A stretch of 64,000 nucleotides of DNA from Candidatus Poribacteria bacterium (GCA_965205025.1 CBDBFU010000013.1:32001-96000), one strand, 5' to 3'. Shown: positions 8,650 to 27,634, counted from the first letter of the stretch. Notes: generated by a model not told the origin, from the letters alone. A program made the numbers and translations.

Positions 8650-8668
8650 CTTTCTCTCCTTGTTGAAT

Positions 8669-9099: not shown

Positions 9100-9109
9100 C
9101 CTGCAGTCT

Positions 9110-11377: not shown

Positions 11378-11387
11378 GATGTCCCCC

Positions 11388-12029
11388 TTATTCTACTGTT
11401 ACCGGTATCAGAAGTGCCGCTGTGAAGTCCGGATGATCTCCGTGAAGAAGTTGCAGTTTAATTTCCGTTTTTCCTGCTTTCAGTCCCTCGAGTCCAAACG
11501 GTAACGCGTCAGCGTGGTCTTCACCATCATGGTCGTCATCTTCTTCACCTTCATGGTCTTCTTCACCTTCATGGTCATGTTCATCCAGATGGATCTTAAT
11601 AATAGTGGCATCGTAACCCGTCAGACCCAAACTGAAGGATTCCAACCCATCATGGTCATGGTCATCTTCACCTGCATGGTCATCTTCACCTGGCGGGGGT
11701 GCTACTTCAGCGAGACTGAGTTCGTTTTCATCCGCGTCAAGAAAATGTACATGTACCTCAATTTCTTCACCAACGGGAACGGTGAGACCGCCTTCATGGT
11801 GGCCTTGATGTTGATGATAGACCACTTTTCCATCGACTTCCAGGTTAAAGCCGTCGGCATCGGCGTGAAGGGGTGCATCCATGTGGTCGTCGTCGTGATC
11901 ATGATCATCATCATGGATAGGGTTGTCTTCACCACAACCTCCCATGAAGGGAAGTACAGCAATAAGGGTTATTAACATTACTCGTGAAATGATGTCAGAA
12001 AAATCGCGTTCAAATAAATTTGTAAACAT
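11388..12029 (-). CDS. His/Asp-rich putative lipoprotein (metal binding)
   Basis: GGAG RBS before the ATG at 12029; hydrophobic segment and MGGC lipobox; several HDDDHDH/HEGEEDH tracts; LLHGDHPDF. Confidence 0.75.
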   Translation of the reverse strand: MFTNLFERDFSDIISRVMLITLIAVLPFMGGCGEDNPIHDDDHDHDDDHMDAPLHADADGFNLEVDGKVVYHQHQGHHEGGLTVPVGEEIEVHVHFLDADENELSLAEVAPPPGEDDHAGEDDHDHDGLESFSLGLTGYDATIIKIHLDEHDHEGEEDHEGEEDDDHDGEDHADALPFGLEGLKAGKTEIKLQLLHGDHPDFTAALLIPVTVE

Positions 12030-12064
12030 TGTATTCTCCAATTTTGTTTTACAGCACAAATAAG

Positions 12065-12129
12065 TGCTAATAAGATTTGAGTTTACTTGCTAATAAGATT
12101 TGAGTTTACTTGCTAATAAGATATGAGTT
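12065..12129. repeat. 23-bp tandem repeat, about 2.8 copies
   Basis: TGCTAATAAGATTTGAGTTTACT at 12065 and 12088; third partial copy at 12111. Confidence 0.9.
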
Positions 12130-12294
12130 GCAGAAGATAAATATAATAGCGTACAAAACTATGTAAAACACTATACCCATTGTTATGTTCACAATGGTAA
12201 TTGTAGATGTTTCTACCCTCTAATAGAATGATATAGAATTAAATGATAGAGTGATGCAGAATTAAATGCTATTTTAACAATGGAAATTATAGAA

Positions 12295-12654
12295 TTAGAT
12301 TGAATTGGAAAATGTAGGAGGGGCGCGACTCTGGATGGTTGTTATAGGACTGGCAGTCCAAATATAAACTTCTTTTAGGGGAAGTGTTCTACGGTGAATC
12401 GTAGGGGATATGATTACATTTGGTTGGATTCCAACTTGGATATGTATGTTGATAAATACACACGCAGCACAACCTTCTTCTGTATGTGACTGTTCTGAAC
12501 GTTCATTTTCATTTTCATGACATGGTAAATGTTCATAACATGAAACCTGTCCATAACATGCATCATGCAGCAGTGGTGCGAAACTGAGTGTCACTACATA
12601 ACAGATTATAGCACTCAAAATTAGTAATTTTGTATTGAAATTGTGCTTTTTCAA
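12295..12654 (-). CDS. DUF2946-like small protein
   Basis: N-terminal TM segment, His-rich stretch, CAAC and C-terminal SRAPP, the pattern typical upstream of metal TonB receptors. Confidence 0.7.
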   Translation of the reverse strand: MKKHNFNTKLLILSAIICYVVTLSFAPLLHDACYGQVSCYEHLPCHENENERSEQSHTEEGCAACVFINIHIQVGIQPNVIISPTIHRRTLPLKEVYIWTASPITTIQSRAPPTFSNSI

Positions 12655-12738
12655 GAATCCAAACCTATATGCTTACTGCGTATTTTGTGTAATAGTATAA
12701 TGTACACAGTTTACGAATGCAAATATTTTTTGTGACAA

Positions 12739-13040
12739 TTAGGACTTATGAGTCCCGTAGGAACGAAATGTCTATTGAAAATGTGTATATCTAATATCTT
12801 GAGTCCAGGGGAATGCCTTATGGCATTCATACCGTTGATTCGCCGAACCTTAGGCGTCAATTTAGTGAGATTGGTATATTTTTATGCTTGTTTGAGTTGT
12901 CTGAATCACAGATTACACGGATTACGCAGAATACACGGAAAAGAGAGGTTATTATCAGTAAGATTTTCTTTCAATTAAGATACTAAGGTAGGGGAATCAA
13001 GGAATCAACGTTATGAACGCCTTATTATCAAACTCACGTT
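12739..13040. repeat. Cluster of dispersed repeat/MITE remnants
   Basis: GAATGCCTTATGGCATTC hairpin (12811-12828), TAGGCGTCAATTTA (12851), TCTGAATCACAGATTACACGGATTACG (about 12900), TTATCAAACTCACGTT (13025-13040); each recurs elsewhere in the window. Confidence 0.7.
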
Positions 13041-13776
13041 AAATAAGTAAAATTGGTATTATATAGAACTAAGGACAATAATTATGTAAATTTACTGTTT
13101 TTTAGTTGTTCACATTTGTTATATTTATATTATCAATATGTTGAAATAGTTACACTTTTTGTCACATGGTGTGACATTTGGAAAACCTTTATCCCGTCAG
13201 TACTACACTAAGTTTACAGCCACTTTTTTAAGGTAACAAGAATTTGCAATAATTATGAAATATGTGTCTTTTACTTTTCTTTTAATCCACTGATTTGGAG
13301 TCGTCTGAATTGGAATTATCCTAACCATCCCTACAAAGAGAATTATATCTGTATAGACGATTCGTATTAATGAGATACACTGTAGTTTTTTGATGTATAT
13401 GATAGAGTGTATTGTTTGAAACAGGTCTATTTTCAAGTTTTTTGATAAAAGTCCATTGTAGCGTAAACTTTCCAGTTTGCGCACAAAGACCACCAACTGG
13501 AAAGTTTGTGGTATAAGAACAGTAAGGTATGCCTTCCAAGAAAGGACATGTTTTGAACTGATGCCATTTATTATCAAACTGGCGTTATGAATAAGGATCT
13601 TCTAACTCCCAAACTTTCGTGCCAGGTGTTAGTTTTAGTTTACAATTATTGAACGATATAGTATTGTACCATTTTATTTTCATTTTGACAAATGATTAAT
13701 TTATTTTATATTATTGTGATATATGTAGGTTAGATGTTTATGTTTTCTTCAATTTATATTAAGTCTTTTTGCTTTC

Positions 13777-13805
13777 TTGACGATATACCCCTCCTATGTT
13801 ATAAT
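13777..13805 (+). promoter_or_regulatory. Putative sigma70 promoter upstream of the R-M gene
   Basis: TTGACG-17 bp-TATAAT with extended -10 TG. Confidence 0.55.
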
Positions 13806-13841
13806 CCTCTTACCCAATCCAGATATACGCTGAGGGGATAT

Positions 13842-13940
13842 ATGTCAGAAACAGAACAATTATACCTTCCTTTAGAAACCGAAAGTAGCCATACTGATAA
13901 CGGTTTTTACGATTCACTAAATTTCATCTCGGATTATTAA
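13842..13940 (+). CDS. Putative 32-aa leader ORF (MSETEQLYLPLE...) or gene remnant
   Basis: GAGGGG RBS, then ATG, just downstream of the promoter. Confidence 0.3.
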   Translation: MSETEQLYLPLETESSHTDNGFYDSLNFISDY

Positions 13941-13984
13941 CTCCTATAACCATCAGAAACAAGATAACACTTAATGGAAAACTT

Positions 13985-16900
13985 ATGGAAACACTAAATC
14001 TTAAACCCACACATAAGTCAATAATAGACTACTACAAGGCATTGGAACAATATGACCAGCATGACTTCACACATGAAGGTGCAGTGAGTAATCCTTTTGC
14101 AATCTTACTTGACATCTGTGCAAAAAAAGTGAATGCCACCTTTGTTCCACAATATCGAATGCGTACCGCAGCAGGAAACAATATCTTCATTGATGGCGCG
14201 GTTATAGACGAATATGGACTCCCGATCGTTTACTGGGAAGCGAAGGATATTGATGACGATCTCACGACAGCAATTCAGGAGAAACGTGAAAACGGTTATC
14301 CATTTAATAATATCCTATTTCAAACCCCTGATCGCGCCATATTGTTTCAGGACGAGCAAGAAGTACTAAACATAGATATCACAGATTCCAAAAATCTTAT
14401 TGAGACACTTCAACGTCTCTTTTCATATTCAGATACTACTTTCAGCGATTGGAACGAAGCAGTTGATAAATTCAGTAATCGGATTCCAGCACTTGCTGAC
14501 AAGTTGAAAGAACTTATTTCGGAACAGAAACAAACAAATGCAGCGTACAAAACAGCATTTACTACTTTCTACCAAGCTTGCCGCAACTCAATTGACCCGA
14601 ATCTTTCGCAAGATACTGTTGAAGAAATGCTCATCCAGCATATCCTCACCGAACGTATTTTCCTCAAGGTTTTTGAAAGATCGGATTTCACAGACCGAAA
14701 TATAATTGCTCGTGAGATTGAAAAGGTCAGTGCAGTATTGATGCAGCGCTCAATGAGTCGAGATGAGTTTCTCAAACCCTTGAACCCGTTCTACGTTGCC
14801 ATTGAGAAGGCGGCAACAGTTTGTAAAGACTTCTCAGAAAAACAACACTTCCTCAATACCGTTTATGAGAAATTTTTTCAGGAGTATTGTGATAAAGTCG
14901 CAGATACACACGGAATCGTTTACACACCGCAACCGATCGTAGATTTTATGGTAAACAGCGTTGAATACCTTTTGCAAAACGAGTTTAACCGTTCGCTCTC
15001 GGACTACAATGTTCATATCATTGATCCGTTCGTTGGTACAGGCAATTTTATTGTTCGAATTATGCAGGACATACGGAAGACAGCATTAGAGGAAAAGTAT
15101 CAGCACGAATTGCATTGCAACGAAGTACTGTTATTGCCTTATTACATCGCCAATCTAAACATTCAACAAGAATATTTTTATCTCACAGGAACATCTCTAC
15201 CGTTTGAAGGGATAGCTTTCGCTGATACCTTTGAATTGTATGATAAAACTCAGATGGATCTTTTTACTGAAGAAAACACGAAACGGGTTGAACAGCAAAA
15301 AGAAAATGACATGTTTGTTGTTATTGGCAATCCACCCTATAATGCGGGGCAAGACGATGAAAACCAGAATAACAAAAACCGTCAATACCCACCGCTTGAT
15401 AAACAGATTCAAAATACATATTCAAAAGATTCCAAAGCACAACTCAATAATAAATTGTATGACCATTATGTCAGAGCGTTTTTCTGGGCATCAGATCGAA
15501 TTGGGGAATCTGGTATCGTGGCTTTTGTAACAAACAATAGTTTTATTACTGAACGGACTTTTGATGGAATGCGTAAACATCTGGGTGAAGGATTTAATGC
15601 AGTTTATGTGTGTAATTTAGGTGGAGACATCCGTAAAGGGCAACCTGTAGACTCTAATGTGTTCGGCATTACTGTCGGAGTAAGTATCTCCCTGCTTGTG
15701 AAAACAGGTGAACCTATTGACACTCCATGTATTTATTTCAACAATGAAACAGAGATACAGAGCAAGGCTCAGACCTTTGATTTCCTTAACAGACATCAAA
15801 ATGTAGGTAATGTTTCATGGCAACAGATTCAACCCGATGCAGGAAACAAATGGCTGACTGAAGGACTTCAAGAAGATTTTTTCGATCTTATTCCTTTGGG
15901 AACAAAAAAGGTAAAAGAAAATGAAAAGATTACTGTAGAAACTGCAGAAGGTGTAATTTTCAAAGACTTTAGTCTTGGTGTGTCAACTAATCGAGATTAT
16001 TGGGTTTACAACTTCAATCAAGACTCACTTTGTGATAACGTACAGCGAATGATAGATAATTACAACGTAGAAGTGGATCGCTATAATCGCCAAAGACCAC
16101 CAAAACCTAAAGTTAATGACTTTGTTATAAACGATGCTACGAAAATAAAATGGAGTCGTGACTTAAAGAAAAAGTTAAAACGAGGTGTAAGTACTGAATA
16201 TGTTCCTCATAAAATAAGGAACTCTCTATATCGTCCCTTCACTAAAACAACCTTGTTTTTTGACAAAATTCTGATAGACAGTCCGGGACAGTTTCCTTCT
16301 ATATTTCCCACTTCAGAAGTAGAAAACGAAAATCAAGTGATTTGTGTTGGCGGTTATGGAAGGAAAGAATTTGCCGTTATGATGAGCAAGTTGATTCCTA
16401 ACTTAAATCTCTATGGTGACCCACAGCAATCCTTCCCTTTCTACACCTACGATGAAGATGGGGCAAAACGCTGTGAAAATATCACCGACTGGGCATTAGC
16501 AGAATTTCAAAACCAGTACGACGATGACGGTATAACAAAATGGGATATCTTCCACTATATCTATGGGCTACTTCATCACAAGAGATATCGTGAAAAGTAT
16601 ACAGAGGACCTTAAAGATAATCTTCCTCATATCCCTTTTGCCGATGACTTTTGGGAATGCTCAAATGCTGGAAGAGAGTTGGCGTACCTCCATGTCAACT
16701 ATGAGTCCGTTCCAAAATACGAAGGATTGACGCTCAAGGAAAACCCCGACATCCCACTAAACTGGGGTGTTGAGAAAATGAAATTGTCTGAAGAAAAAAG
16801 ACAGATCCAATATAATGATTTCCTAACGATTGAAAATATACCTGCTGAGGCGTTTGATTATAAGCTGGGAGGTTGGTCCGCATTAAAGTGGATAGAGAAT

Positions 16901-17086
16901 CAATACCAAATTAAGGTGGATAAGGACACAAGAAATCGTAAAGGAAGTTATATCGTAAGGAATCCAAATAGGGAGGATGAACCGCAATACATTGTAGACT
17001 TAATCGCACGTGTTATTACCGTCAGTCTTGAGACGGTAAAGTTAATTAACGATTTACCCGCATTATATCCTGAAGGAGAAAACTAA
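13985..17086 (+). CDS. Single-chain restriction-modification enzyme (type IIG / helicase-less type ISP-like; N6-adenine MTase)
   Basis: N-terminal IDG...WEAKD PD-(D/E)xK-like motif; HGIVYTP, DPFVGTG, GNPPY; LlaBIII-like C-terminus (YRPF, IFHYIYGLLH..YR, ARVITVSLET); no helicase motifs. Confidence 0.88.
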   Translation: METLNLKPTHKSIIDYYKALEQYDQHDFTHEGAVSNPFAILLDICAKKVNATFVPQYRMRTAAGNNIFIDGAVIDEYGLPIVYWEAKDIDDDLTTAIQEKRENGYPFNNILFQTPDRAILFQDEQEVLNIDITDSKNLIETLQRLFSYSDTTFSDWNEAVDKFSNRIPALADKLKELISEQKQTNAAYKTAFTTFYQACRNSIDPNLSQDTVEEMLIQHILTERIFLKVFERSDFTDRNIIAREIEKVSAVLMQRSMSRDEFLKPLNPFYVAIEKAATVCKDFSEKQHFLNTVYEKFFQEYCDKVADTHGIVYTPQPIVDFMVNSVEYLLQNEFNRSLSDYNVHIIDPFVGTGNFIVRIMQDIRKTALEEKYQHELHCNEVLLLPYYIANLNIQQEYFYLTGTSLPFEGIAFADTFELYDKTQMDLFTEENTKRVEQQKENDMFVVIGNPPYNAGQDDENQNNKNRQYPPLDKQIQNTYSKDSKAQLNNKLYDHYVRAFFWASDRIGESGIVAFVTNNSFITERTFDGMRKHLGEGFNAVYVCNLGGDIRKGQPVDSNVFGITVGVSISLLVKTGEPIDTPCIYFNNETEIQSKAQTFDFLNRHQNVGNVSWQQIQPDAGNKWLTEGLQEDFFDLIPLGTKKVKENEKITVETAEGVIFKDFSLGVSTNRDYWVYNFNQDSLCDNVQRMIDNYNVEVDRYNRQRPPKPKVNDFVINDATKIKWSRDLKKKLKRGVSTEYVPHKIRNSLYRPFTKTTLFFDKILIDSPGQFPSIFPTSEVENENQVICVGGYGRKEFAVMMSKLIPNLNLYGDPQQSFPFYTYDEDGAKRCENITDWALAEFQNQYDDDGITKWDIFHYIYGLLHHKRYREKYTEDLKDNLPHIPFADDFWECSNAGRELAYLHVNYESVPKYEGLTLKENPDIPLNWGVEKMKLSEEKRQIQYNDFLTIENIPAEAFDYKLGGWSALKWIENQYQIKVDKDTRNRKGSYIVRNPNREDEPQYIVDLIARVITVSLETVKLINDLPALYPEGEN

Positions 17087-17484
17087 TTAACACTTGAACA
17101 TACTGCCAGCTATAAGGAGAACAACTGTGAACCTAAACGAAGTGAATCTTGGTGATAAAGGCACAATAAGCGATATAGCAATAAAACTCCGGGATATTTT
17201 CAAAAATTTCAAAGGATAACTTGGATTATTAAAGACTGGTAGACGAACACTTAGGGTGAATGACGCGATTACAGCTATTGTGTTTCTCTTGAATACCTAA
17301 TTAATGTAGAAGAGTAAATTATCCCACCAGTAACGAATCCACCTGTATCATCCCTTACCTACTAAGGGGTACTCTATTTACAAGTTTTTAATTATCAAAC
17401 TCACGTTTATGTAGACTTGATAGTTATGTATCTGCACCTTTTTTAAATCATTAAAACAGGCAGATTTAATCAAAAATACTTAAC

Positions 17485-17677
17485 TACGTGAGTTTGATAA
17501 TTAACAAGATGTGCGCAAATTAAACAGAGAACAGGCATATTTGCTGAAAAAATCGTCATTTTGGTGTTTTTAACCCCTAAAGAATCAACGGTATGAATGC
17601 CTTATGGCATTCCCCGCCCTTATCAGGGGACTTTAAGAGGAAATGTGGAAGACCTAACTATTTATCAAACTCACGTT
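17485..17677. mobile_element. MITE-like non-autonomous element with ACGTGAGTTTGATAA / TTATCAAACTCACGT termini
   Basis: Inverted termini at 17486-17500 and 17662-17676; extra terminus at 17392-17407; internal GAATGCC-TTAT-GGCATTC hairpin; near-identical inverted copy at 27649-27797. Confidence 0.7.
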
Positions 17678-17678
17678 A

Positions 17679-17945
17679 ACTGGTATATTGAATTCTAAAC
17701 TTATCTCTTTTGGTTAAAGTATAAAGGTGAATTGCAAGGGACAAATTATCAAATAGATAAACAACCTTTATTACCAATACTCCTAATTTCACCACATACT
17801 GAAGAACAGATGATCAGATACTTGATGCTAAACAAGCCGCCCCGATGTGGACACTTCCGACCTTGAAAATGAGATTGATAAGCTGGTGTGCGAATTGTAT
17901 AATTTAACGGTAGATGAGATTGCGATTTTGGAAGGAAAAGAATGA
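17679..17945 (+). pseudogene. Remnant C-terminus of a type IIG (Eco57I/TaqI_C-like) R-M enzyme
   Basis: Manual translation across frameshifts gives GILNSKLISFWLKYKGELQGTNYQIDKQPL...DTSDLENEIDKLVCELYNLTVDEIAILEGKE*; the stop overlaps the ATG of the TIR gene. Confidence 0.75.
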
Positions 17946-20581
17946 GCAAACCGCTAAAAGGATTCATCACTTATTCACATAAAGACGCTGCAGCAAAGGA
18001 CGAATTGCGAGAACGCCTTGCTGTCATGGAGCAGAAAAATGAACTCACCACTTGGCACGATGGTGAAATTACTGCGGGTGACGAGTGGTATGAAGATATT
18101 TCCAAAAATCTTGCAGGGTCGGATATGCTTCTCTACCTCGTATCAGCAGCAAGTCTTGCCTCTAAAAACTGCAACAAAGAATTAGCAGAAGCCTTAACCG
18201 CAGACATAAAAGTCATTCCGATCATTCTTGAGTATTGCGATTGGCAGCAGCATCAACTCAGCGACTTTGAGGTTCTACCTTCCAAAGGTAAACCGATTTC
18301 CAACTGGGAGGAACCGAGCGAAGGTTGGCAAAATGTAGTGGATGGAATCCGAAAAGTCGTTGAAATGCAGTCTGAGAATTGTTTTTCTGAAACTATTGAG
18401 AAAAAACTTCGAGCTGAATCAGAATTCCACCGTGGGAATGTTCAGCAGCTGCTTGGGCAGATAGATACGGCAATAGAAGCCTACTCACAGTCCATTGACC
18501 TTAAACCTCGTGTTGCTTGTTCTTATAACAATCGCGGGGCTGCTTACCAGAAAAAAGGAAACTTTGATCGCGCCATTGAAGATTTTAACACGGCAATTGA
18601 ACTAAAAAATGACTACAGCCAAGCTTATTATAATCGTGGGTTCACTTATTACGAAAACGGTAAAATTGAAAAAGCACTTGAAAACTATAATAAAGCAATA
18701 AAACTCAAACCTGATTATGCTGAAGCATATAGCAATCGAGGCAATATTTATAAAAAAGATAGCAATCTTGATAAAGCTGTCGCAGACTATAACATAGCGA
18801 TAAAACTCAAACCAGACCTTGCTGAAGTTCATTACAATCGCAGTGTAGTTTACGAAAATGAAGGCGATTATGATAGGGCTATCCAAGATTGTAACACAGC
18901 AATAAAACTCAAACCTGATTTTCCCGAGGCATACAATAATCGCGGTAACGCTTACATAGGAAAAGGTGAATTTGACAGTGCTATCAACGATTATGATATG
19001 ACGATAAAACTCAAACCCGATTATGCCGAGGCGTATTACAGCCGTGGTACTATTTATGGTAGAATTGGCAATTCTGATAGTGCAATTAAAGACTTTGATA
19101 AAGCGATAGAACTCAAACCTGATTTTCCAGAGGCATACAGTAATCGCGGTAACACTTACGTCTTTGAAGGCAAGTTGGAAAACGCTCTCAAAGACTACAC
19201 CGAAGCAATACAACTTAAACACGACTATGTTGATGCTTACTATAATCGTGGGGCAGTTTATGGCATAACAGGCAATTATGATAGGGCAATCAAAGATTAT
19301 ACCGAAGCGATAAAACTCAATCCACAACATGCCAACGCATATAATAATCGTGGAGTGGCTTGGTTACACCTGCAAGAATGGGATAAAGCCAAAACCGATT
19401 TCACAACTGCCAAACGGTTAGGTGTGGACATAATTGCAATATTCCATAATTCCTACAAAAATGTTGAGAGTTATGAGAAGCGACATCGTGTCAAATTACC
19501 AGAAGACATCGCATTGCTTTTGACAGAACGCCGTCGTACCCGCTACCCCAAAACGCGTAACTTTTTGGATGCCGATGGCAACCCGTTTGAATCGCCGGAC
19601 GTGGTGAATTTACGCGAGCAGTTGCGCAACGTTGGACCACCTTTAAGCGAGTACATCAATGCAAAGTCCGCCTTCGGTATTAACACTGCACCCACTGAGG
19701 TGTTTGTGGTAAACAAAGCAACACGAAATAAACTCATTGCAGCTCATCCTTCCTCTGCTGATATTTTAAAACCGTTTTTACACGGACAGGAGCTCAGACG
19801 TTGGTACGTTGATACACCGCACCAGTGGTTAATCTTTACCCACCGAGGTATAACAATAGACGACTATCCAGCAATCCTGGAGTATTTAGAAAAACATAAA
19901 GAACCTTTGAGGAAAAGAAAAGGAAAACAGGAATGGTATGAGTTGCCAGCACCTCTTAAAGATGTGGAGCGTTTTGCACAACCGAAACTGGTCTGTCCAA
20001 ATACCTATAACCATCAGACTTTCGCGGTGGATACTGCCGGTTATTATTATGGGAATACGTCCTATCTCATCCCAACTGAAGAAACGTGGCTTTGTGGTCT
20101 CCTCAATTCCCGTACTGTGGAGTGGTTTTATTCACAGGTGTCAAAACAATTGACGATTGATCCGCTTCGGGCGCGCAGCGGGTATATCCAGCAGATTCCG
20201 ATTCCCAACATCACGCCAGTACACAAAGCACTTATAGCTAAAGTCGTTGATTATCTGATCTGTCTACAGCAGCAACCGGAGATAAACAGCAAGGATTTGG
20301 CACATGCCCGTGACCGCATAATGCTCGGATATTTTGAGCGAGTTATTGATGGATTGGTTTATGAGGCTTACCTACCTGCTGAACTTCAGAAGAGCGATAA
20401 AGTTTTCTTGCAACCGTTATTAGACGAGGGGTTGCCGTCACTTGAAGAGATTCAGGGTGATAAAATGTCTGCTCTCCGGGACATCTTTGAGCTGTTATAT
20501 GACAGGATGCATCTTGTCCGACGCCACCTTTATTATCTGGATGTTATAAAACCTATCCGCATCATTCAAGGAAAACTGTGA
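17942..20581 (+). CDS. TIR domain - 10 TPR - TaqI_C-like (type IIG R-M specificity domain) fusion protein
   Basis: TIR: FITYSHKD, WHDGEI.AG, SKNCNKEL; ten 34-aa AYxNRG TPRs; C-terminal ILKPFLHG.ELRRW, YPAILEYL, WYEL, PKLV, LCGLLNS, QIPIP, IDGLVYE. Confidence 0.88.
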   Translation: MSKPLKGFITYSHKDAAAKDELRERLAVMEQKNELTTWHDGEITAGDEWYEDISKNLAGSDMLLYLVSAASLASKNCNKELAEALTADIKVIPIILEYCDWQQHQLSDFEVLPSKGKPISNWEEPSEGWQNVVDGIRKVVEMQSENCFSETIEKKLRAESEFHRGNVQQLLGQIDTAIEAYSQSIDLKPRVACSYNNRGAAYQKKGNFDRAIEDFNTAIELKNDYSQAYYNRGFTYYENGKIEKALENYNKAIKLKPDYAEAYSNRGNIYKKDSNLDKAVADYNIAIKLKPDLAEVHYNRSVVYENEGDYDRAIQDCNTAIKLKPDFPEAYNNRGNAYIGKGEFDSAINDYDMTIKLKPDYAEAYYSRGTIYGRIGNSDSAIKDFDKAIELKPDFPEAYSNRGNTYVFEGKLENALKDYTEAIQLKHDYVDAYYNRGAVYGITGNYDRAIKDYTEAIKLNPQHANAYNNRGVAWLHLQEWDKAKTDFTTAKRLGVDIIAIFHNSYKNVESYEKRHRVKLPEDIALLLTERRRTRYPKTRNFLDADGNPFESPDVVNLREQLRNVGPPLSEYINAKSAFGINTAPTEVFVVNKATRNKLIAAHPSSADILKPFLHGQELRRWYVDTPHQWLIFTHRGITIDDYPAILEYLEKHKEPLRKRKGKQEWYELPAPLKDVERFAQPKLVCPNTYNHQTFAVDTAGYYYGNTSYLIPTEETWLCGLLNSRTVEWFYSQVSKQLTIDPLRARSGYIQQIPIPNITPVHKALIAKVVDYLICLQQQPEINSKDLAHARDRIMLGYFERVIDGLVYEAYLPAELQKSDKVFLQPLLDEGLPSLEEIQGDKMSALRDIFELLYDRMHLVRRHLYYLDVIKPIRIIQGKL

Positions 20582-22006
20582 AAATAACCGACATTGAGAT
20601 AAAAAACTTCAGAGCTTTTCCCAAACCCTACCAAATCAAGCTGGATAATGCAGGAAAGAATTTATTAGTTTATGGAGAAAACGGGAGTGGAAAATCATCG
20701 TTGTATCTCGCGTTAAAATATTTCTTCAAATCAGGTTTGGATACCAACGACGAGAGTGACAAAAGTAATGATTTTGAAAGTCATCAGAACATCTTTGTCA
20801 ATGATCCTGGTCATGTCAAACTCTCTTTCGGTAAAGATTCCTATGAGTGGTCAAAATCCATTACAGAAACGACTGATGAACTGATTAAGGAGACAGCAAA
20901 AGCGAGCGGATTTCTTGACTATAAAGACCTTTTGGGAGTACACTATCTGCAACCCGAAGGCGAAGCAGTGAATGTGTTTGATTTGCTGGTTGAGACGCTT
21001 TTAGCATATACTATCAACCCTGTGACGGACAGAACCCTCGTAGACGATTGGGATGAGATCCAAGGAACCTTATCCCCGTAGAAGTGCAAAAAATAAAATT
21101 GCAGACCTTGAAAATCGGATAGACATCTTCAACATTGAACTTGCTAACAGATTAGATGAATTGCGTCCAAAAGTGAGCGAGATTCTTGGTAAGTTCGGAT
21201 ATAAAGTTGATCTTGATTTAGATTTTCAAGGTGTAACCTATAATCACACGAATAAAACGCTTGATAACCAGCAGATTCTATTGAATGTCAAATTCTTTGA
21301 CAAAGATGTCTCTAAAGAATACCTTTTGTTAAATGAAGCAAAATTGTCAGCAATTGCAATTTCCATTTATCTTTCATCGATTCTACTTCTACCAGATCCA
21401 GAAAGTGGATTGAGAATTCTTGCCCTTGATGATGTTCTAATCGGTTTGGACATGTCTAACCGCTTTCCAGTCCTTGATATACTTGAGGAGTACTTCAAAG
21501 ATTACCAAATCTTTTTGATGACTTACGATAAAGCCTGGTATGAGATTGCTAAACAACGGTTGGATGAGCAGAATTGGAAATACACTGAATTTTATTTCAA
21601 AGCAACCGACGAATACGAAATACCTGTGTGTAAGGAAGATAGACCATATTTGGAAAAAGCAAAAGAATATCTTGATGAGAATGACTATAAGGCTTGTGCT
21701 ATTTATGTTCGCACTGCATTTGAAGCGGCAATCAAGAAATATTGTGAGGAAAAAGACCTTGCTGTAAAATACCGTGAAAACCCAAAAGACTTGAAAAGTG
21801 AAGATTTCTGGGTGCCGATTAAAACAAAAATGAACGATGCTGGCAATCTTCTTTTGAATGTAAAAGTTGTTGACAAGATTGAATCGACTCGAAAATTTAC
21901 TTTAAACGAACTTTCTCATGTATCTGTTGCGAACATCTACATAAAAGAACTTGAGGATGCCATTGCAGCCGTGGAGGAGCTTGAAACTGCGTTAACATCA
22001 GTCTAA
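20578..22006 (+). CDS. ABC-type (SMC/RloC/PrrC-like) ATPase with C-terminal HEPN-like domain; one frameshift at about 21074-21081
   Basis: Walker A GENGSGKSS, LNEAKLSAIAIS signature, Walker B ILALDD..GLD, MTYD; C-terminal YVRTAFE and RKFTLNELSH; ORFs 20578-21081 and 21053-22006 join to about 475 aa if one base is removed. Confidence 0.8.
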
Positions 22007-22124
22007 GTTTTACTAAGTCATTCACAACGATACAGACCAGATCAGTGAACTGCTAACACCCCCACAACCATAGCAGCAAAACAAAAACACTCACCTTAGC
22101 GGATAACCTGATGTTACAGACTGC

Positions 22125-22170
22125 CAATCCGTGAAATCCGTGTAATCTGTGTAATCCGTGATTCAGACAA
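22125..22170. repeat. 9-bp-periodic CCGTGTAAT/GATTCAGA dispersed repeat
   Basis: ATCCGTGAAATCCGTGTAATCTGTGTAATCCGTGATTCAGACAA; relatives at about 12900, 25790, 25880, 57660, 57760, 57815 and 58545. Confidence 0.75.
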
Positions 22171-22234
22171 CAAAGAATCCCGAACAGACAAGACAACCCT
22201 CACACCACAGCACAAACCAATGCAAAGGCTTACA

Positions 22235-22318
22235 CTTGAAAACGGTCTTGCTAAGCTGGGGTCTGAACTGTCCAATTTAAGGGAAAAAGAAATTGCGATT
22301 GTGGAGAGGGCTGTCTGA
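22235..22318 (+). pseudogene. Second eroded type IIG R-M C-terminal tail
   Basis: Translates as LENGLAKLGSELSNLREKEIAIVERAV*, colinear with LENEIDKLVCELYNLTVDEIAILEGKE* at about 17862-17945. Confidence 0.55.
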
Positions 22319-22410
22319 TTAGTAGAAGGCACTGAGTTTGAGAGGGTAATAGGGATTTTGGTTGATATGTGGGGGTTGGTTGCGTTATCATTACCCTCAA
22401 GTAATACGAA

Positions 22411-23094
22411 TTGTGCGGGAGAAAAGATATGCAAGAACTAAATCAAAGGTTTGTTAATGCCTCTTACGACCTCAATTTTATTTATGCTGATAACACACTT
22501 TTTCGCAAACAGAATAGTGTTGAGGCACACAATAACCAAGGCATTAATCATGCCGAAAATGGACATTATGATCTTGCCATCACCTCCTTCAACAAAGCCA
22601 TAGAACTGAAACCTGATTTTGCAACAGCCTATAATAATCGAGGTCTAACTTATCTGCTCAACGACGAAGTTGATAAGGCAATAAGAGATTATACGAAAGT
22701 AATAGAACTTAACCCAGATAATGCGGAAGTCTATAACATTCGTGGATGTATTTATTTCAGCAAAAATGTGGTTGACCGTGCCATTAAAGACTTTAATAAA
22801 GCAATAGAGCTTAACCCAGATAATGCCGTTGTCTATAACAACCGCGGTTTAGCTTATGCGAAAAAAAGTATGGTGGAACTCGCTATTGCTGACTATTCTA
22901 AAGCGATAGCACTCAATCCCGATTATACTGAGGTATATTATTATCGCGGAGGTGCATTGTTACGACTCGAAAAGCGAGAGAGGGCTAAATTAGACATCGC
23001 GATTGCCAGAAGCATGGAATATGACGCTCTCATTGCCTTAGACAAAATTCTGAAAGAATACGATCGCGGATGGAAAACCCTTGCCGACTTATGA
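22411..23094 (+). CDS. TPR repeat protein (start possibly 22429)
   Basis: Five AYNNRG-type TPRs similar to those of the TIR fusion. Confidence 0.8.
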   Translation: MCGRKDMQELNQRFVNASYDLNFIYADNTLFRKQNSVEAHNNQGINHAENGHYDLAITSFNKAIELKPDFATAYNNRGLTYLLNDEVDKAIRDYTKVIELNPDNAEVYNIRGCIYFSKNVVDRAIKDFNKAIELNPDNAVVYNNRGLAYAKKSMVELAIADYSKAIALNPDYTEVYYYRGGALLRLEKRERAKLDIAIARSMEYDALIALDKILKEYDRGWKTLADL

Positions 23095-23233
23095 AATATT
23101 TAGATGATTGCAGACAATAAAATCCGCGTCCTTCGCGCACAAACTGCCGATTAGCATTCCCCGCTAAAACAATTGATGATCAACGAAAGTTGTGATATAC
23201 TCTTTTCAACTGTTTCACGAAGAGGTGGATATC

Positions 23234-23460
23234 ATGAAAACGCTCCCATTAGAAATAGACCATAAAATCAAGTTGCCCCGTGACTGGGTCAGAGAATTAG
23301 GATTGGAATCGGGTATTATACTTGAACTGACAGACGAGGGATCCTCATCCGTCCCTACTCAGCACAGACGTGGGACGAAATCTATGCCGAGAAACTCAAA
23401 ATGGGAATTCCTTCGGTATTAGACCTGTCCGAGGTAAGTGGTGATGACCTTATCTTCTGA
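23234..23460 (+). pseudogene. AbrB/MazE-like antitoxin, frameshifted at about 23340
   Basis: MKTLPLEIDHKIKLPRDWVRELGL...TDEG continues in another frame as ILIRPYSAQTWDEIYAEKL...DDLIF*. Confidence 0.6.
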
Positions 23461-23521
23461 ACAATTCGCCGGTCGCGGATTAGACGCAATGCTGATCGTC
23501 TATTCTTTGCTCAATGACCAT
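23438..23521 (+). pseudogene. N-terminal fragment of a PIN/VapC-like toxin
   Basis: GLDAMLIVYSLLNDH resembles a PIN start motif; overlaps the antitoxin stop; similarity ends at the convergent gene. Confidence 0.45.
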
Positions 23522-23742
23522 CAATTGTTTATTTCTTGTTGTCTCATAGCAAGGTGTTTGTTAATCAGTTCAAGCACTGCGGGTACCAATTCGGTAGGAA
23601 TCGTCATCAATGTGTTAGACTCATCCTGAAATGCAGCCTCATCTTCAGCAACAGCTTCACCCTCTGTTTGGTCTTCATAATGTGTAATAACACTTTGTAC
23701 GCTTGCTTCATCCCACCCAGGTGGAAATTTAATCTGCGTCAT
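23521..23742 (-). CDS. Small conserved protein of TA-associated type
   Basis: FPPGWDE..V..VI.HYE.QTE.EAVAEDEAAF motif; AAGGAG RBS. Confidence 0.65.
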   Translation of the reverse strand: MTQIKFPPGWDEASVQSVITHYEDQTEGEAVAEDEAAFQDESNTLMTIPTELVPAVLELINKHLAMRQQEINN

Positions 23743-24024
23743 CGTCTGTTTCTCCTTAGAACATCTTCTACCTCATCCTCGTTGACATTATTGAGTGTAC
23801 TTAATAGTCTCTGATAAGGGACGGGGAATGCCTTAAGGTATTCATACTGTTGATTTTGTAGGTGAGTTCTCCAATCAGAGATGAGTAATTAACATTTAGA
23901 AATGGTATCATTTACCCGGTTTGCATAGTGAAAGCGTGTTTGAAGAGGGTAAGGAGTGATACCACAAACTAACAGTATGTGGTACAAAGAGGAACAGTGA
24001 ACAATAGTTGTATATGGACAGGGA

Positions 24025-24285
24025 TCATCCGACTGCGATAGCGTAATTGGTCAATGCTGGACTCCGTTTTTTTGCACGTTTTGCAGTCTCTATTAACTCT
24101 TTGACAGTGTCAATTAGGGCATCCATCGTTTCCGGTGTGAAGGAGGGATCTCCATCTTCTGGACACACCCATGCCCAGACATTTTCTATCCGAACAGATA
24201 TATCATCTTCGGTATATTCAAAGACAGTTTGACTCCATACTTTTTCTTTTTTGTGCTGTGTACAGATTGGTATAGGGTTATTCAT
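24025..24285 (-). CDS. YgiT-type zinc-finger-like antitoxin
   Basis: CTQH...IENVWAWVCPEDG; directly downstream of the DUF4258 gene. Confidence 0.65.
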   Translation of the reverse strand: MNNPIPICTQHKKEKVWSQTVFEYTEDDISVRIENVWAWVCPEDGDPSFTPETMDALIDTVKELIETAKRAKKRSPALTNYAIAVG

Positions 24286-24288
24286 AGA

Positions 24289-24624
24289 TTACCTCTCTTT
24301 GCGTTTCCTATGCTGAAAAGTTGGTGGTTCCCATTGAAGTTCATCAGGAATATAAGCGGTTATGAACTCAATTAGGACTGGATGAGCATGTTCACAGACG
24401 ACATGTAGGTAAACGGGTACGCCGTCTTGGAGCGTTGTCCTACCACTAATTAAGACTCGTTCTTCCTCTAAATATTCCTCTATGATCTCCCCATTCAAAA
24501 TTACGTCAATAATATGTTTACGTTCAAAACCTTCTTTTAATGCGTGCTGCACAGCATGTGGTTTCGTCAGATAGTGTCCATCGCGGATTCTATTTTGTAT
24601 AGTTTGTATATTCAAAGTTTCCAT
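24289..24624 (-). CDS. DUF4258 family putative toxin
   Basis: HAVQH, ILNGEIIEEY, LHVVC, ITAYIPD..W. Confidence 0.8.
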   Translation of the reverse strand: METLNIQTIQNRIRDGHYLTKPHAVQHALKEGFERKHIIDVILNGEIIEEYLEEERVLISGRTTLQDGVPVYLHVVCEHAHPVLIEFITAYIPDELQWEPPTFQHRKRKER

Positions 24625-24877
24625 TACACTGGTATATAAAGCGTTCTACCAGCATATAATTAAAGAATATATTATTCTTGTTGTAATGTCAAATGGTAAT
24701 TGAACAAGGGGTGCATAAATAATTTGTCCCTATGGGTCAACTTAAAAAATTTGCTGATCTCCATGTAAGACTGGTTGGTTTTATTCCAAATAATGGTATA
24801 AGTTGACTATATGCAAAATATACCATATACTTTAATTCAACGAATATATGAAAAGTATTATAAAGAGGATCAAATAC

Positions 24878-25198
24878 ATGGCAATTGCAAAAATCCGAGA
24901 ACATGGACAGATAACCATTCCTAAACCAATCAGAGAAAGTTTAGGACTTAAAAAGGGTGATATCGTTGATGCACGACTTGAAGGAGATTGTGTAGTAATC
25001 ACTCCCAGAAAAATGGTTTCATCGGAGGACTGGGAAAAACTCTTGCAAGTCATGAATAGTGTGCATGAACAGAACAAAGGTATAAGTGAAGAACAAGTCT
25101 ATCAAGATGTAGAACGTGCAGTTGCTGAACTTCGACAAGAAGAATATGGTAAACAGAATATTGCCCACAATATTAGGATGGACTGTCCACTATTGTAG
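24878..25198 (+). CDS. AbrB/MazE/SpoVT family antitoxin or regulator (orphan)
   Basis: GQITIPKPIRESLGLKKGDIV; GAGGA RBS before the ATG at 24878. Confidence 0.8.
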   Translation: MAIAKIREHGQITIPKPIRESLGLKKGDIVDARLEGDCVVITPRKMVSSEDWEKLLQVMNSVHEQNKGISEEQVYQDVERAVAELRQEEYGKQNIAHNIRMDCPLL

Positions 25199-25231
25199 AA
25201 TGTCGAATTAATACTAAAATCTATCATAGCC

Positions 25232-25327
25232 ATGTTTCACAGTCAAACCGAACTTATTGAAAAAATCATGTTGGGAGAAGAGTCAACGATAGAATTCAAA
25301 AGAGAGATGCCACACAGATATTCGTGA
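25232..25327 (+). pseudogene. N-terminal fragment of a Schlafen/AlbA_2 ATP-binding protein
   Basis: MFHSQTELIEKIMLGEESTIEFKRE, then stop. Confidence 0.55.
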
Positions 25328-25334
25328 AATAATA

Positions 25335-25583
25335 ATGGAGGCTATCATGCAAGAGTCATCAGTTATTCAACATTTCCTTCAACAAGGCATTGATCAAGGC
25401 GTGCGAGAAAGTCTCATTGAGGGCATCCTTGAAAACTTGGAGGTACGTTTCCATGCTCACAACTTGCAAGAAGTAAAGACAGCATTGGAACGTATTGAAA
25501 CGCTGCAACGTCTTAGACAATTGCGCCGTACATCCTTACAGGCACAGAGTCTGGAAGCTTTCCAGCAAACGTTAAATGAATAG
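25335..25583 (+). pseudogene. C-terminal fragment of an Rpn/DUF4351-like protein
   Basis: MQESSVIQHF.QQGI.QG...LEVRF...LRQL...SLEAF. Confidence 0.6.
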
Positions 25584-25626
25584 ACACAGAAGTTTGCTGA
25601 CAATGTTTTTCGAAGATGTGAATATC

Positions 25627-25690
25627 ATGAACGACTATAGAGACATTATTACCATTGAACCGAGTAAACATAGCGACAACCATGTATTCG
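25627..25690 (+). pseudogene. N-terminal fragment of a DUF433 antitoxin
   Basis: MNDYRDIITIEPSK resembles DUF433 starts; similarity is lost afterwards. Confidence 0.45.
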
Positions 25691-25779
25691 TGGAACGCGA
25701 CTCAACATCTTTATTCAATTCGTTTATTATAGAGGTAAAGATAAAGATGCAAATCATAGTAAGAGAATTCTGATAGGAA

Positions 25780-25950
25780 AACATCCTCTCCGTGTAATCC
25801 GCGATTCAGAAAATACACATCTTTGTACCACAAACTTTTAGTTTGTAAGATTACTCCTTATCCTCTACAAACCCTCTCCTCCGCGTAATCCGTGATACAG
25901 AAACGAGAACCATCCACACACAAAAACCCTCTTCTCCGTGAAATCCGTAC
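25780..25950. repeat. Composite repeat module (CCGCGTAATCCG..TTCAGA units plus CACAAACT/AGTTTGTG REP-like hairpin)
   Basis: Homologous, in inverted orientation and with shuffled order, to 57700-57850. Confidence 0.75.
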
Positions 25951-26291
25951 TGTTTATACCGATCTTACAATAATATCAAATAAATTGAAGAAAAATATAA
26001 AACCAGCAACAAATAAACAACAGATAAAAAGCACCGTAAAATCCATAAATTCACAGAACGCCAGACAAAAGACAAATGGAATTCACTTGCATACAATATT
26101 CACATACGTTATAATATATGTAATACAGAGTATAGTATGAACCCAAAAACCGTTTTCATTACTTTTATAATAACTTTGGATTTCCAAAATATTTTGGAAA
26201 TCCAACAAACCTATGCCAATACAGGATTTATGACACACCCATCAAAATACAGAAATGCCATATTTAATAACAGATTAAAAATGTCCGATTT

Positions 26292-26541
26292 ACATAACAG
26301 CCTGAAAACCCTTTCTGGTATGGGCGTTAGAGCAATTTTGAGTAAGCAATTTAAAAATTGTGTTATAAAAATCAAAATTACAGTTTTGGATATCATAAAT
26401 AAACTAAAGAAAAGGCAAAATTCAAATTTTTATAATTTCTATTTCAATTTGGTATAAACCCAGACTATGACAGGGGTTACAAGGGTAATTTACACCAATT
26501 TCAATGTTACACGATGTAACGAAAAGTGTAACTTTTTTCAT
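26292..26541 (+). repeat. ~250-bp conserved non-coding element, copy 1
   Basis: Aligns by eye with the reverse complement of 56730-56978. Confidence 0.8.
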
Positions 26542-26814
26542 TTTTTTAACGCATAAAGAAATGCAACAACAAGAACTACTGTCTGAGTATTTAGGATTGT
26601 GATCCAAGAGTGTATACCATCTACAATCCAATTAAGTAAAATATAATATAACATATGTGATTCACGGAGAATTGGGGTTATTAAATCTATAAACCTTTAT
26701 AGAATAAGGGTTCGCAAAATTGCTCCGTGAAGGTTTCCGTGAATGAAGGTGTGGATTTCTCAATCGGATGTTAACAGAATCTTAACCATGAGATCAGATA
26801 TCGTCCAATGTTCA

Positions 26815-26843
26815 TTGACAAGAACCATAGTATAATATAGAAT
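26815..26843 (+). promoter_or_regulatory. Putative sigma70 promoter of the LamG gene
   Basis: TTGACA-17 bp-TAGAAT; AGGAGGA RBS follows. Confidence 0.55.
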
Positions 26844-26878
26844 ATCCCTATTAAACTCTTGTTAGGAGGAAGCAAACT

Positions 26879-27634
26879 ATGAGAAACCCTATATGTATTT
26901 TGCTTATAACGACAATTCTTTGTATTCTAACAATACCTTATACTGTAGATGCAGCGGATGATCTTATTTTCCATTTCCCTTTTGATGAAGGGAATGGAGA
27001 TAAAACTAAAGACAAATCGGATAACAGTTTTGAAGGTACAATAAAGAATGCGAATTGGGTTGAAGGAGTGGTTGGTGAAGCACTTGAATTTAATAGTGGA
27101 TTTGTAAATGTCGAACCTTTGGGTGTTGACGTGCCTGATGAGATGACGATCGAAATGTGGTTTAAACCAGCCGAGAAAATTGCCGGTGGTGGCAGAATTG
27201 ATTTACTATATAGACTTACTGGAGGCGGAAGACCACATCTCACATTTAACCGGGGTGGACTTCTCTTTGGATGTTATGTAGCAACGAATGCTGTTGAGTT
27301 TGAAGTAATCTCAACCTATACCGCGTTTGAACCACAATGGTATTACCTTGTTTTGACACAAGATCAAGATACAGCCATTATGTATATTGATGGTAAGAAA
27401 GATGCTGAAGCAAATGCAGGTGGCCCTGTCAGAATGGATTTCTCTGCAAATGGAATGTGTATTGCAGCAAATCAAGGCAATAGTAATTTCTTCAATGGTA
27501 CAATAGATGAAGTTAAAATGCGGGATGTTGCTCTGTCTGCTGATGATGTAAAAAAGAATATGGATCAAGTCTTAGCAGTTGATGCTGATGATAAGTTAAC
27601 AACCACCTGGGGAGATATAAAGTCAAGACTCTAA
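26879..27634 (+). CDS. Secreted LamG-like jellyroll protein with C-terminal AV...KLTTTWGDIK motif
   Basis: Signal peptide, FDEGNG..KDKS, TIEMWFKP, MYIDG, FNGTIDEV. Confidence 0.85.
   Translation: MRNPICILLITTILCILTIPYTVDAADDLIFHFPFDEGNGDKTKDKSDNSFEGTIKNANWVEGVVGEALEFNSGFVNVEPLGVDVPDEMTIEMWFKPAEKIAGGGRIDLLYRLTGGGRPHLTFNRGGLLFGCYVATNAVEFEVISTYTAFEPQWYYLVLTQDQDTAIMYIDGKKDAEANAGGPVRMDFSANGMCIAANQGNSNFFNGTIDEVKMRDVALSADDVKKNMDQVLAVDADDKLTTTWGDIKSRL

Follow-up and report, generated by a model that had tools for sequence, protein, structure and literature searches.

A TIR-TPR protein with a type IIG-like recognition part

What is the purpose of a gene pair in which a TIR domain and a TPR array are fused to the recognition part of a restriction-modification (R-M) enzyme, and in which the fusion gene runs directly into a gene for an ABC ATPase? 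Such a pair lies at positions 17942-22006 of a 64,000-nucleotide stretch of Candidatus Poribacteria bacterium (GCA_965205025.1, CBDBFU010000013.1:32001-96000; the whole stretch is called the window below). We refer to the fusion as gene A and to the ATPase as gene B. A first-pass annotation, made from the sequence alone, had taken the pair for a candidate new anti-phage system. We read it as a conserved two-gene conflict module (most likely anti-phage or anti-plasmid) that combines a PrrC-like, type IIG-linked ABC-HEPN protein with an R-M partner rebuilt as a TIR-TPR sensor/effector, and put the probability of this reading at roughly 0.6. The parts of gene A, including its target-recognition domain (TRD), are as follows.

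17942..20581, plus strand: gene A, intact, a TIR - TPR(10) - TRD module protein of 879 amino acids (aa) (open reading frame, Pfam, PADLOC)
17963..18382, plus strand: TIR domain, with the Glu80 codon at 18179-18181 within SKNCNKEL at 18161-18184 (TIR_2, ThsB-like match)
18419..19441, plus strand: TPR array of about ten repeats (TPR_1)
19553..20326, plus strand: TaqI_C / type IIG-like TRD without a methyltransferase (TaqI_C, M.BseCI profile match)
20300..20578, plus strand: C-terminal helices of the TRD module, the predicted ATPase docking surface (complex prediction, mapped from the L026 orthologue by alignment A5)

The first-pass description of an 879-aa protein with a TIR domain, ten TPRs, a TaqI_C-like part and no methyltransferase motif was confirmed by Pfam, PADLOC and a motif search. 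In Pfam, TIR_2 covers residues 8-110 (E = 1.3e-14), TPR_1 ten stretches (4.3e-92) and TaqI_C residues 610-754 (2.6e-14); in PADLOC a ThsB-like TIR profile (ThsB1) covers residues 8-147 (7.4e-27). The C-terminal part is a recognition domain of the TaqI_C/MmeI type. The type IIG profiles of PADLOC match gene A through their C-terminal parts only (one aligns its positions 864-1101 of 1148 with residues 551-771), and a profile built from the last 410 residues finds the C-terminal domain of M.BseCI, a TaqI-like methyltransferase (7qw5, residues 333-571; E = 1.4e-16). No methyltransferase motif of the NPPY type ([DNS]PP[YFWH]) occurs in the gene A protein, and neither a methyltransferase nor a nuclease family is found among the 25 Pfam families listed of the 33 that match. 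Gene A has no N-terminal endonuclease domain; the TIR domain occupies this place. Glu80, the TIR glutamate said in the first-pass annotation to be retained, lies in the SKNCNKEL motif (residues 74-81), is invariant in all 14 aligned TIR domains and corresponds, in a profile search, to the 'C..EL' motif Glu of Cat1 and TLR TIR domains. Gene A keeps this residue and every other family-invariant column. Given the domain E-values and the 43 related loci described below, chance can be excluded as an explanation.

A single-sequence PDB search with the TIR domain gave no match, the whole protein found TPR proteins only among the 60 matches listed, and a structure model of the TRD module (alignment A2; mean pLDDT 54.9) was too poor for a fold search and was not used. 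The TIR profile matched a solved 824-aa protein named 'tetratricopeptide repeat protein', whose N-terminus has a TIR-like stretch (9m0n / 9umd, E = 0.0019); 9m0n is absent among the 60 whole-protein matches listed.

A coupled ABC ATPase with a HEPN-like C-terminus

Gene B is read in two overlapping fragments.

20578..21081, plus strand: first fragment, ABC ATPase N-terminal lobe, 167 aa, with Walker A at 20674-20700 (AAA_15 7.3e-12, AAA_23 1e-11, SMC_N)
21053..22006, plus strand: second fragment, 317 aa, orthologous reading from about 21065, with an ABC signature-like LNEAKLSA at 21329-21352, Walker B at 21416-21436 and the HEPN-like domain
21623..22003, plus strand: HEPN-like C-terminal domain, with RTAFE at 21710-21724 and NELSH at 21905-21919 (orthologue fold match, invariant columns)

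The GTG start of gene B (20578) overlaps the TGA stop of gene A (20579-20581) as GTGA, and the RTAFE and NELSH motifs follow Walker A (GENGSGKSS) and Walker B (ILALDDV); the overlap and the two C-terminal motifs had been noted before. An NTGA stop-start overlap (ATGA, GTGA or TTGA) is present in 27 of 28 intact orthologues. The two genes form an operon with coupled reading frames.

The gene B family has an N-terminal ABC ATPase of the Rad50/SbcC-like kind. SMC_N, AAA_23 and AAA_15 are matched by 71-74 of the 74 family members, the head matches Rad50 (3qku) by sequence (E = 2.8e-5, covering 1-322), and its predicted fold is that of RecF/SMC proteins (5z68, Z = 8.7). Folds were taken from an AlphaFold model of an intact orthologue (L026; mean pLDDT 58.4), from which we took only the C-terminal domain and a coarse match of the head, and were searched against 48,161 chains. 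Ten-residue blocks of model residues 360-478 have pLDDT means of 73-91, with one block at 48. The best fold matches of residues 358-478 are HEPN domains, with a root-mean-square deviation (rmsd) of 2.6-2.8 over 99-107 residues for the five best; they include 2hsb (Z = 9.5, rmsd 2.8 over 107 residues), 1ufb (9.3), 1wol (8.9), sacsin 3o10 (8.9), 4nqf (8.6) and Csm6 6tug (8.1). Walker A, D289/D290, R383, E387 and H452 are invariant across the 74 ATPases, down to 31% identity, and N448 is at least 90% conserved, giving the motif set R-x3-E ... N-x3-H. The invariant columns R31, E35, N96 and H100 of alignment A3 hold in the window copy too. With a profile of the HEPN domain, 615 cluster representatives are reached at E ≤ 1e-3, and 307 remain at E ≤ 1e-10; most are ATPases of 470-700 aa. 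The fold match and the invariant R383, E387 and H452 thus agree with the first-pass suggestion, and the modelled C-terminus of gene B is best described as HEPN-like.

The ATPase family is tied to type IIG enzymes

An operon of a type IIG R-M enzyme and an ATPase had been proposed as the origin of the pair, and the wider distribution of the ATPase bears this out. A search of plasmids (tblastn with the ATPase) gave relatives in three records, and in each a TRD-type gene lies directly upstream of the ATPase gene; a second query gave one record. On the conjugative plasmid pANSO36B of Nostoc cf. commune a 338-aa TaqI_C-only protein overlaps a 477-aa ATPase by 4 nt; on pSpe of Thiospirochaeta a 285-aa match to the TRD profile (3e-10) is followed by a 580-aa ATPase; and in Prevotella a complete 1172-aa Eco57I/N6_Mtase/TaqI_C enzyme is followed one base later by the ATPase and then by an HNH_5 gene. 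No relatives of the ATPase were found in the phage collection.

A metagenome scan with the alignment of 74 sequences returned at least 165 ATPase relatives, of which 80 loci were kept; 75 of these 80 ATPases match the HEPN profile. A same-strand frame ends at the ATPase start in 72 loci. More than half of these frames (42/72; median 1189 codons) match both the TRD and the type IIG methyltransferase regions. Ten more match the TRD only, nine of them being cut by a contig end, so that 52 in all match the TRD-module profile; one matches the methyltransferase regions only and 19 match neither. In metagenomes of gut, soil and marine origin the core pair lies beside R-M enzymes. jackhmmer reached five of the 19 frames with neither match, and six form a family of about 1000 aa without NPPY. 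Two families of large upstream proteins, of 968-1031 aa (L080, L091, L092, L101, L102, L125) and 1226-1236 aa (L081, L089), have no NPPY motif and no methyltransferase match, and jackhmmer searches started from TRD-only sequences led to some of them; here the R-M half may have been replaced in other ways. The upstream proteins of L091 and L081 have no sequence match in the PDB. The ESM Atlas gave leads to TRD-only proteins and to a large ATPase cluster, which were used as leads only.

In a tree of 106 ATPases (quick maximum-likelihood, LG+G4, with SH-aLRT support only; unrooted) the 27 sequences from sponge symbionts form one clade (SH-aLRT 99). Its neighbours are a type IIG-linked sequence (L053), the TRD-only sequence of Nostoc and two sequences whose upstream gene is cut or unknown, and IIG-linked sequences occur on both sides of the deep branches. 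The sponge clade stands among IIG-linked ATPases.

Distribution, selection and exchange of N-termini

The first-pass annotation had allowed that the fusion might be unique to this assembly, which is not the case. A protein search gave 766 matches to gene A at E ≤ 1e-3; the best 120 of these are 79-89% identical over the C-terminal region, and most consist of TIR, TPR and TaqI_C, some being without the TIR. In a collection of species genomes we found 43 related loci, 37 in Poribacteria, 4 in entries named uncultured bacterium and 2 in Latescibacterota. The ATPase is intact at 28 of these loci, cut by a contig end at 4 and broken or absent at 11, which makes 28 intact copies among 39 assessable loci. 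At a threshold of E ≤ 1e-30, which also admits the TRDs of IIG-like frames of about 1200 aa, the family profile finds 125 of the 176 genomes of the phylum; with a best E ≤ 1e-100 it finds 90 (counted by hand). Median ratios of nonsynonymous to synonymous substitution rates (dN/dS; 28 pairs each), a check that had been suggested earlier, are 0.11 for the TRD, 0.16 for the N part of the ATPase and 0.12 for its C part. The family is widely conserved and under purifying selection.

The N-terminus of gene A varies. An in-frame TIR domain is present at 24 of the 43 loci, an FRG domain at 3 (Pfam E 1e-13 to 1e-15) and an HNH-like domain at 2 (E 2e-4 to 5e-4, below the Pfam cut-off), the last also occurring in a paralogue in the window's own genome; at the remaining loci the N-terminus is TPR-only, cut or not assigned. 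At one locus (L047) TIR-TPR and TPR-TRD lie on two adjacent frames. The orthologues of gene A range from 547 to 1315 codons, and TRD-only proteins of 385-421 aa with 56-82% identity exist. A variable number of TPRs and swapped N-termini are expected of conflict systems.

The TRD is homologous to the DNA-recognition domains of TaqI-like and type IIG enzymes, and gene A might still read a DNA sequence. Its TRD would then bind a specific (unmethylated) site, and genes A and B would act together as a restriction-like complex, with cutting by HEPN, HNH or TIR and with protection through methylation by a second methyltransferase in trans. The HNH-like N-termini and the HNH_5 gene after the Prevotella ATPase would suit this, as would the Eco57I-type IIG genes that lie upstream on the same strand at 6 of the 43 loci and the type IIG/ISP-like gene upstream in the window. 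However, 37 of the 43 loci have no IIG gene in their flanks, so a methyltransferase is not a constant neighbour, and TIR, FRG and HEPN are by family not DNA-cutting domains. R-M specificity domains normally diversify, whereas the TRD is here the most conserved part (75-85% identity across species; dN/dS 0.11). Because this part is so strongly conserved, the sequences argue for a role in docking or as bait rather than for variable DNA specificity. We consider the DNA-reading alternative unlikely.

The two genes of the window differ in their closest relatives (19499-22003). By synonymous divergence (dS) the TRD is closest to L006 and L008 (0.53-0.68); the ATPase is closest to L025 and L026 (0.56-0.78) and distant from L006 and L008 (1.1-2.1). 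Since the TRD and the ATPase point to different nearest loci, this mosaic ancestry suggests recombination between gene A and gene B.

The concentration of the family in sponge-associated lineages, where it keeps its synteny and occurs in roughly every second genome of the phylum, raises another possibility. TIR proteins of some pathogens mimic host adaptors, and gene A could be a 'eukaryote-like' symbiosis factor whose TIR and TPR parts interfere with TIR signalling or phagocytosis of the host instead of acting on phages. 'Sponge metagenome' runs are among the listed holders of the family, and one of these runs (X4) carries a relative of about 95% identity. Yet the gene A protein opens directly with the TIR core (MSKPLKGFITYSH) and, by eye, leaves no space for a leader peptide, and its gene is translationally coupled to that of an ABC-HEPN protein. 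The TIR position is also exchanged for FRG, HNH-like or nothing, and the core pair occurs outside sponge symbionts, on the Nostoc plasmid and beside the metagenomic R-M enzymes. A symbiosis factor seems to us very improbable.

The predicted complex of the two proteins

A prediction of the complex, another check proposed earlier, was made with the TRD module (363 aa) and the ATPase (478 aa) of L026, using separate alignments. The interface score ipSAE was 0.84, 0.80 and 0.84, whereas none of three controls exceeded 0.00; the partner had a pLDDT of 73 or more, and contacts agreed to 67% or more. In calibration the ipSAE mark was passed by 58 of 80 solved complexes and by 2 of 110 mismatched pairs, which is only a rough guide for custom alignments. 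To our knowledge no complex of this kind has been solved, and it is therefore unlikely that the prediction succeeded from a memorised structure. On the TRD module the interface comprises residues 268-284, 302-303 and 339-362 of 363, that is, the last helices; on the ATPase it comprises residues 107-114, 152-157, 177-198, 221-223 and 275-280, which belong to a helical insert and neighbouring loops. The HEPN domain lies outside the interface. The ATPase is thus predicted to dock on the C-terminal helices of the TRD module. The prediction supplies concrete residues for experiments, in particular 268-284 and 339-362 of the 363-aa TRD piece of A and 107-114, 177-198 and 275-280 of B.

The ATPase gene of the window is broken

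21060..21066, plus strand: frameshift, one extra base compared with intact orthologues (orthologue alignment, public-run contigs)
G000:C15:381057-384041 (L049:7057-10041), minus strand: paralogue in the window's genome, HNH-like - TPR - TRD, 994 aa

The first-pass annotation spoke of expressing a 'repaired pair', which implied a break in gene B without stating one. The break exists, and we can add that it consists of one extra base near 21062, where orthologues read ...DEIQ-EPYPRR.... Contigs from the public runs X1 and X3, which belong to one study, and X2, from another, were compared over 20578-22006; one of these runs may be the source of the window. They show no differences to it across the frameshift. 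The relative of about 95% identity from a third study (X4) has one base fewer at 21062. It also carries 18 extra bases behind 20832, which are six codons common to the orthologues that were deleted in-frame from the window. Because the extra base is found in contigs of two studies and is absent from the close relative, the frameshift is real and recent; to judge from these contigs, gene B is a recent pseudogene in this strain. The dN/dS values of pairs with the window copy (0.13-0.16) are no higher than others, so this measure, too, places the break in the recent past. In a second contig of X1 the 385 letters between 21546 and 21932 are replaced by 388 others, which points to a co-occurring variant with a different middle on the HEPN side.

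The second family copy of this genome, the paralogue listed above, is 50% identical and has an HNH-like N-terminus (E = 2.9e-6). Of its partner ATPase the first 16 and the last 90 residues remain, in a single frame. A 992-aa gene with an FGE-sulfatase domain lies upstream of this paralogue.

These findings raise the possibility that the window locus is a decaying remnant without present function, even if the family works elsewhere; the real frameshift, the 18-nt deletion and the truncated ATPase of the second copy all fit this. However, gene A is an intact frame of 879 aa that keeps Glu80, the dN/dS of the window copy is not raised, and A could act alone through its TIR domain. The TPR-TRD frames likewise stay open at 10 of the 11 loci with a broken or lost ATPase. 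We therefore regard a functionless remnant as improbable. That the ATPase is lost so often is what one would expect of a partner that is costly and toxic; simple decay would explain it too. Since gene B is frameshifted, the window copy can at most act through gene A alone. With its ATPase gene broken it is of lower practical value, and intact orthologues are better suited to experiments.

A model for the gene pair and the points against it

We suggest that the conserved core of the system is formed by the TRD module and the ABC-HEPN protein, with B docking on the helical tail of A. In most relatives A is a complete type IIG enzyme, to which B would be bound as a latent back-up RNase, in the manner of PrrC and EcoprrI. 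In the sponge symbionts (Poribacteria and Latescibacterota) the nuclease/methyltransferase half of A appears to have given way to a TPR array, usually with an N-terminal TIR, FRG or HNH-like effector. Because the enzymatic half is replaced by TPRs and an exchangeable effector in this clade, we read the gene pair as a sensor, a switch and effectors. The TRD module, the TPR array or both would sense a cue from an invader, which may be DNA, a DNA mimic or another phage protein, and the ABC ATPase would be the switch that turns the sensed cue into activation. The outputs would be RNA cleavage by the HEPN domain and, in the TIR forms, where Glu80 is kept, cleavage of NAD+ by TIR. We infer the trigger, the two enzymatic activities and the role in defence from this arrangement; the guard or decoy sensing and the tRNA cleavage put forward in the first-pass annotation are likewise hypothetical.

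Several observations weigh against this model. The high conservation of the TRD fits docking or bait and does not point to a particular sensor. The family sits in synteny between ordinary genes and reaches about half of the genomes in the phylum, a less patchy spread than is usual for mobile defence systems. The ATPase is broken or lost at 11 of the 39 assessable loci and in both copies of the window's genome. An order of events with the type IIG enzyme first is the parsimonious reading of the ATPase sequences, in a tree whose root was not inferred. The HEPN assignment rests on one model with a mean pLDDT of 58, and Z scores of 8-9.5 can be reached by helical bundles through their arrangement alone. 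Pfam DUF4145, a HEPN family according to PMC3710099, is matched by 3 of the 74 ATPases, and Pfam HEPN by 2 (E ≤ 0.01). The canonical Rx4-6H spacing does not occur in the ATPase family; the sponge forms have R-x4-N-x3-H, and this R is not invariant across the wider family.

A bolder version of the model is tentative and, in our view, rather doubtful. In it, the TRD with its tail would be a general docking and bait platform for a PrrC-like ABC-HEPN protein that guards the R-M enzyme. In the sponge forms the enzyme would have been reduced to an 'integrated decoy', whose TRD serves neither restriction nor methylation any more, and fitted with TPR sensors and TIR, FRG or HNH effectors. The pair would fire NAD+ loss and RNA cleavage when anti-restriction proteins of phages (DNA mimics, for example) attack the decoy. 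If true, bacteria would here have a counterpart to the decoy-guard logic known from plant immune receptors.

Should the sensor-switch-effector model hold, PrrC would be no peculiarity of a single type I system, and the TRD tail would firmly couple type IIG enzymes to a large family of ABC-HEPN proteins. The sponge forms would then show how an R-M enzyme can turn into a non-enzymatic sensor or decoy with TIR, FRG or HNH effectors. They would also offer a testable case of guard/decoy immunity in bacteria and a new partner context for bacterial TIR domains.

Relation to known systems

PrrC is an anticodon nuclease that is kept latent by the type Ic R-M system EcoprrI. Gene B resembles it in its Rad50/SbcC-like ABC ATPase, in the HEPN-like C-terminal domain with an R-x3-E ... 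H set and in the genomic tie of its family to an R-M enzyme. It differs in that its partner is a type IIG single chain, or the TRD module of one, and not hsdMSR, and in the TIR and TPR parts of gene A. The E-to-H spacing in gene B is about 65 residues. The Pfam model AAA_13, which we take to be that of PrrC and RloC, reaches 12.7 and 21.3 bits, below its cut-off of 36, and over N-terminal residues only. It is found in 46 of the 74 ATPases at E ≤ 0.01 (best 1.5e-6), matches below the model's cut-off that do not place the family within it. No type I hsdMSR locus surrounds the pair, the neighbours being a type IIG/ISP-like gene, a TPR protein and toxin-antitoxin-like frames. RloC has a long coiled coil and a zinc hook; gene B, with about 480 aa and a short helical insert, lacks both and is set apart from it by description. 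RloC and the ABC-HEPN groups APECO1_4465 and ERFG_01251 of Anantharaman et al. 2013 share the same two-part layout and often lie in R-M neighbourhoods (PMC3710099). A linkage of ABC-HEPN proteins to R-M systems is described in general terms in the same paper and in bioRxiv 10.1101/2024.01.29.577857.

The C-terminal residues of gene A (about 340) are homologous to the TRD and C-terminal part of type IIG enzymes (Eco57I / MmeI / TaqI-like), and full enzymes with a TRD module precede the ATPase family of gene B. Gene A itself, however, has TIR and TPR parts in place of the methyltransferase, the nuclease and the NPPY-type motif. With TIR immunity systems (Thoeris ThsB, SPARTA TIR-APAZ, Cat1) gene A shares a ThsB-like TIR domain and the conserved Glu; its TIR is instead fused to TPRs and a TRD and paired with an ABC-HEPN protein. 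Among 14 open reading frames scanned at 7297-28691 (frames shorter than 110 aa mostly excluded) none carries a ThsA-type (SIR2, SLOG, Macro), Argonaute or CARF domain; with no ThsA found there, we do not count the pair as Thoeris.

PARIS (AriA/AriB), Septu (PtuA/PtuB-HNH), Lamassu (LmuB with a variable LmuA) and the MAD3-MAD4 part of MADS also combine an ABC ATPase with exchangeable effectors, and Septu further resembles the Prevotella locus with its HNH partner gene after the ATPase. The gene B head has weak PADLOC matches to AriA, PtuA, LmuB and mad3 (E 1e-6 to 1e-12), mostly over the first 60-110 or so residues; mad3 covers residues 2-323 (E = 5.6e-9). In gene B, by contrast, the HEPN effector is part of the ATPase protein itself, and a TRD-module protein takes the partner's place. 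Among the frames scanned in the window there is no Toprim, PtuB or LmuA neighbour, so the pair does not belong to PARIS, Septu or Lamassu. We also rejected membership in MADS, to which the mad3 and mad2 matches are weak and whose MAD3-MAD4 is an OLD-type ATPase-nuclease (PMC13662399).

The first-pass reader did not recognise the architecture as a named system, and neither did we find a name for it. PADLOC-DB 2.0.0 has no specific model or named match for the pair. In our literature search neither a TIR-TPR-TaqI_C protein nor an operon joining a type IIG enzyme to an ABC-HEPN protein turned up; the ABC ATPase classification of Krishnan et al. 2020 and the additional files of PMC3710099 were outside its scope, and either may hold the family. 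The pair belongs to a widespread family for which we found no name.

Genomic setting

The family occupies three syntenic chromosomal settings, with LolA-like, cupin, YceI, BNR-repeat and amidohydrolase neighbours. The window represents a fourth, with a type IIG/ISP-like R-M gene upstream and small frames of DUF4258 and MazE-like type downstream. The features upstream of gene A are the following.

13985..17086, plus strand: neighbour outside the conserved module, an intact single-chain type IIG / type ISP-like R-M gene of 1033 aa (Pfam, PADLOC)
17350-17370: terminator-like hairpin 3' of this R-M gene
17875..17903, plus strand: promoter-like site about 40 nt 5' of the gene A start (consensus match only, TTGATA-17-TATAAT, 11 of 12 positions)

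The R-M gene matches Type_ISP_C (2.6e-97), ISP_coupler (1.6e-16) and N6_Mtase (3.8e-13) in Pfam, and REase_MTase_IIG (1.2e-224) in PADLOC. The long helicase part that classic type ISP enzymes carry is missing from it, and its N-terminal 150 or so residues contain a '...WEAKD' stretch that by eye resembles a PD-(D/E)xK-like nuclease motif. We considered this gene as a conserved partner of the pair and rejected it, as relatives were found at none of the 43 loci. Other defence-type genes accompany the family at some loci, including the Eco57I-type genes mentioned above and a NERD-UvrD-like gene (cluster 28).

Behind the ATPase of the window lies a TPR-only frame (22411-23094, plus strand), and several related loci, among them L006, L008 and L022, show the same; such a frame may be left over from additional copies or may be a further component. 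A second, shorter TRD-like frame (cluster 18, 305 aa) is present in L045 (9650-10564) and L046, directly 3' of the ATPase in the former and of the TPR-TRD gene in the latter. Further downstream in the window are the small frames with a DUF4258 (24289-24624, minus strand; 2e-8) and with a MazE/AbrB-type antitoxin (24848-25198, plus strand; 2e-10). These toxin-antitoxin-like frames give the site an island-like look. Rfam had no match in 12000-27000, and a tRNA scan of the window found none. The G+C content is 0.47-0.49 at the cobW and TonB-receptor genes (6001-12000), 0.32 at 12001-14000 and 0.35-0.42 across the R-M and TIR-TPR region.

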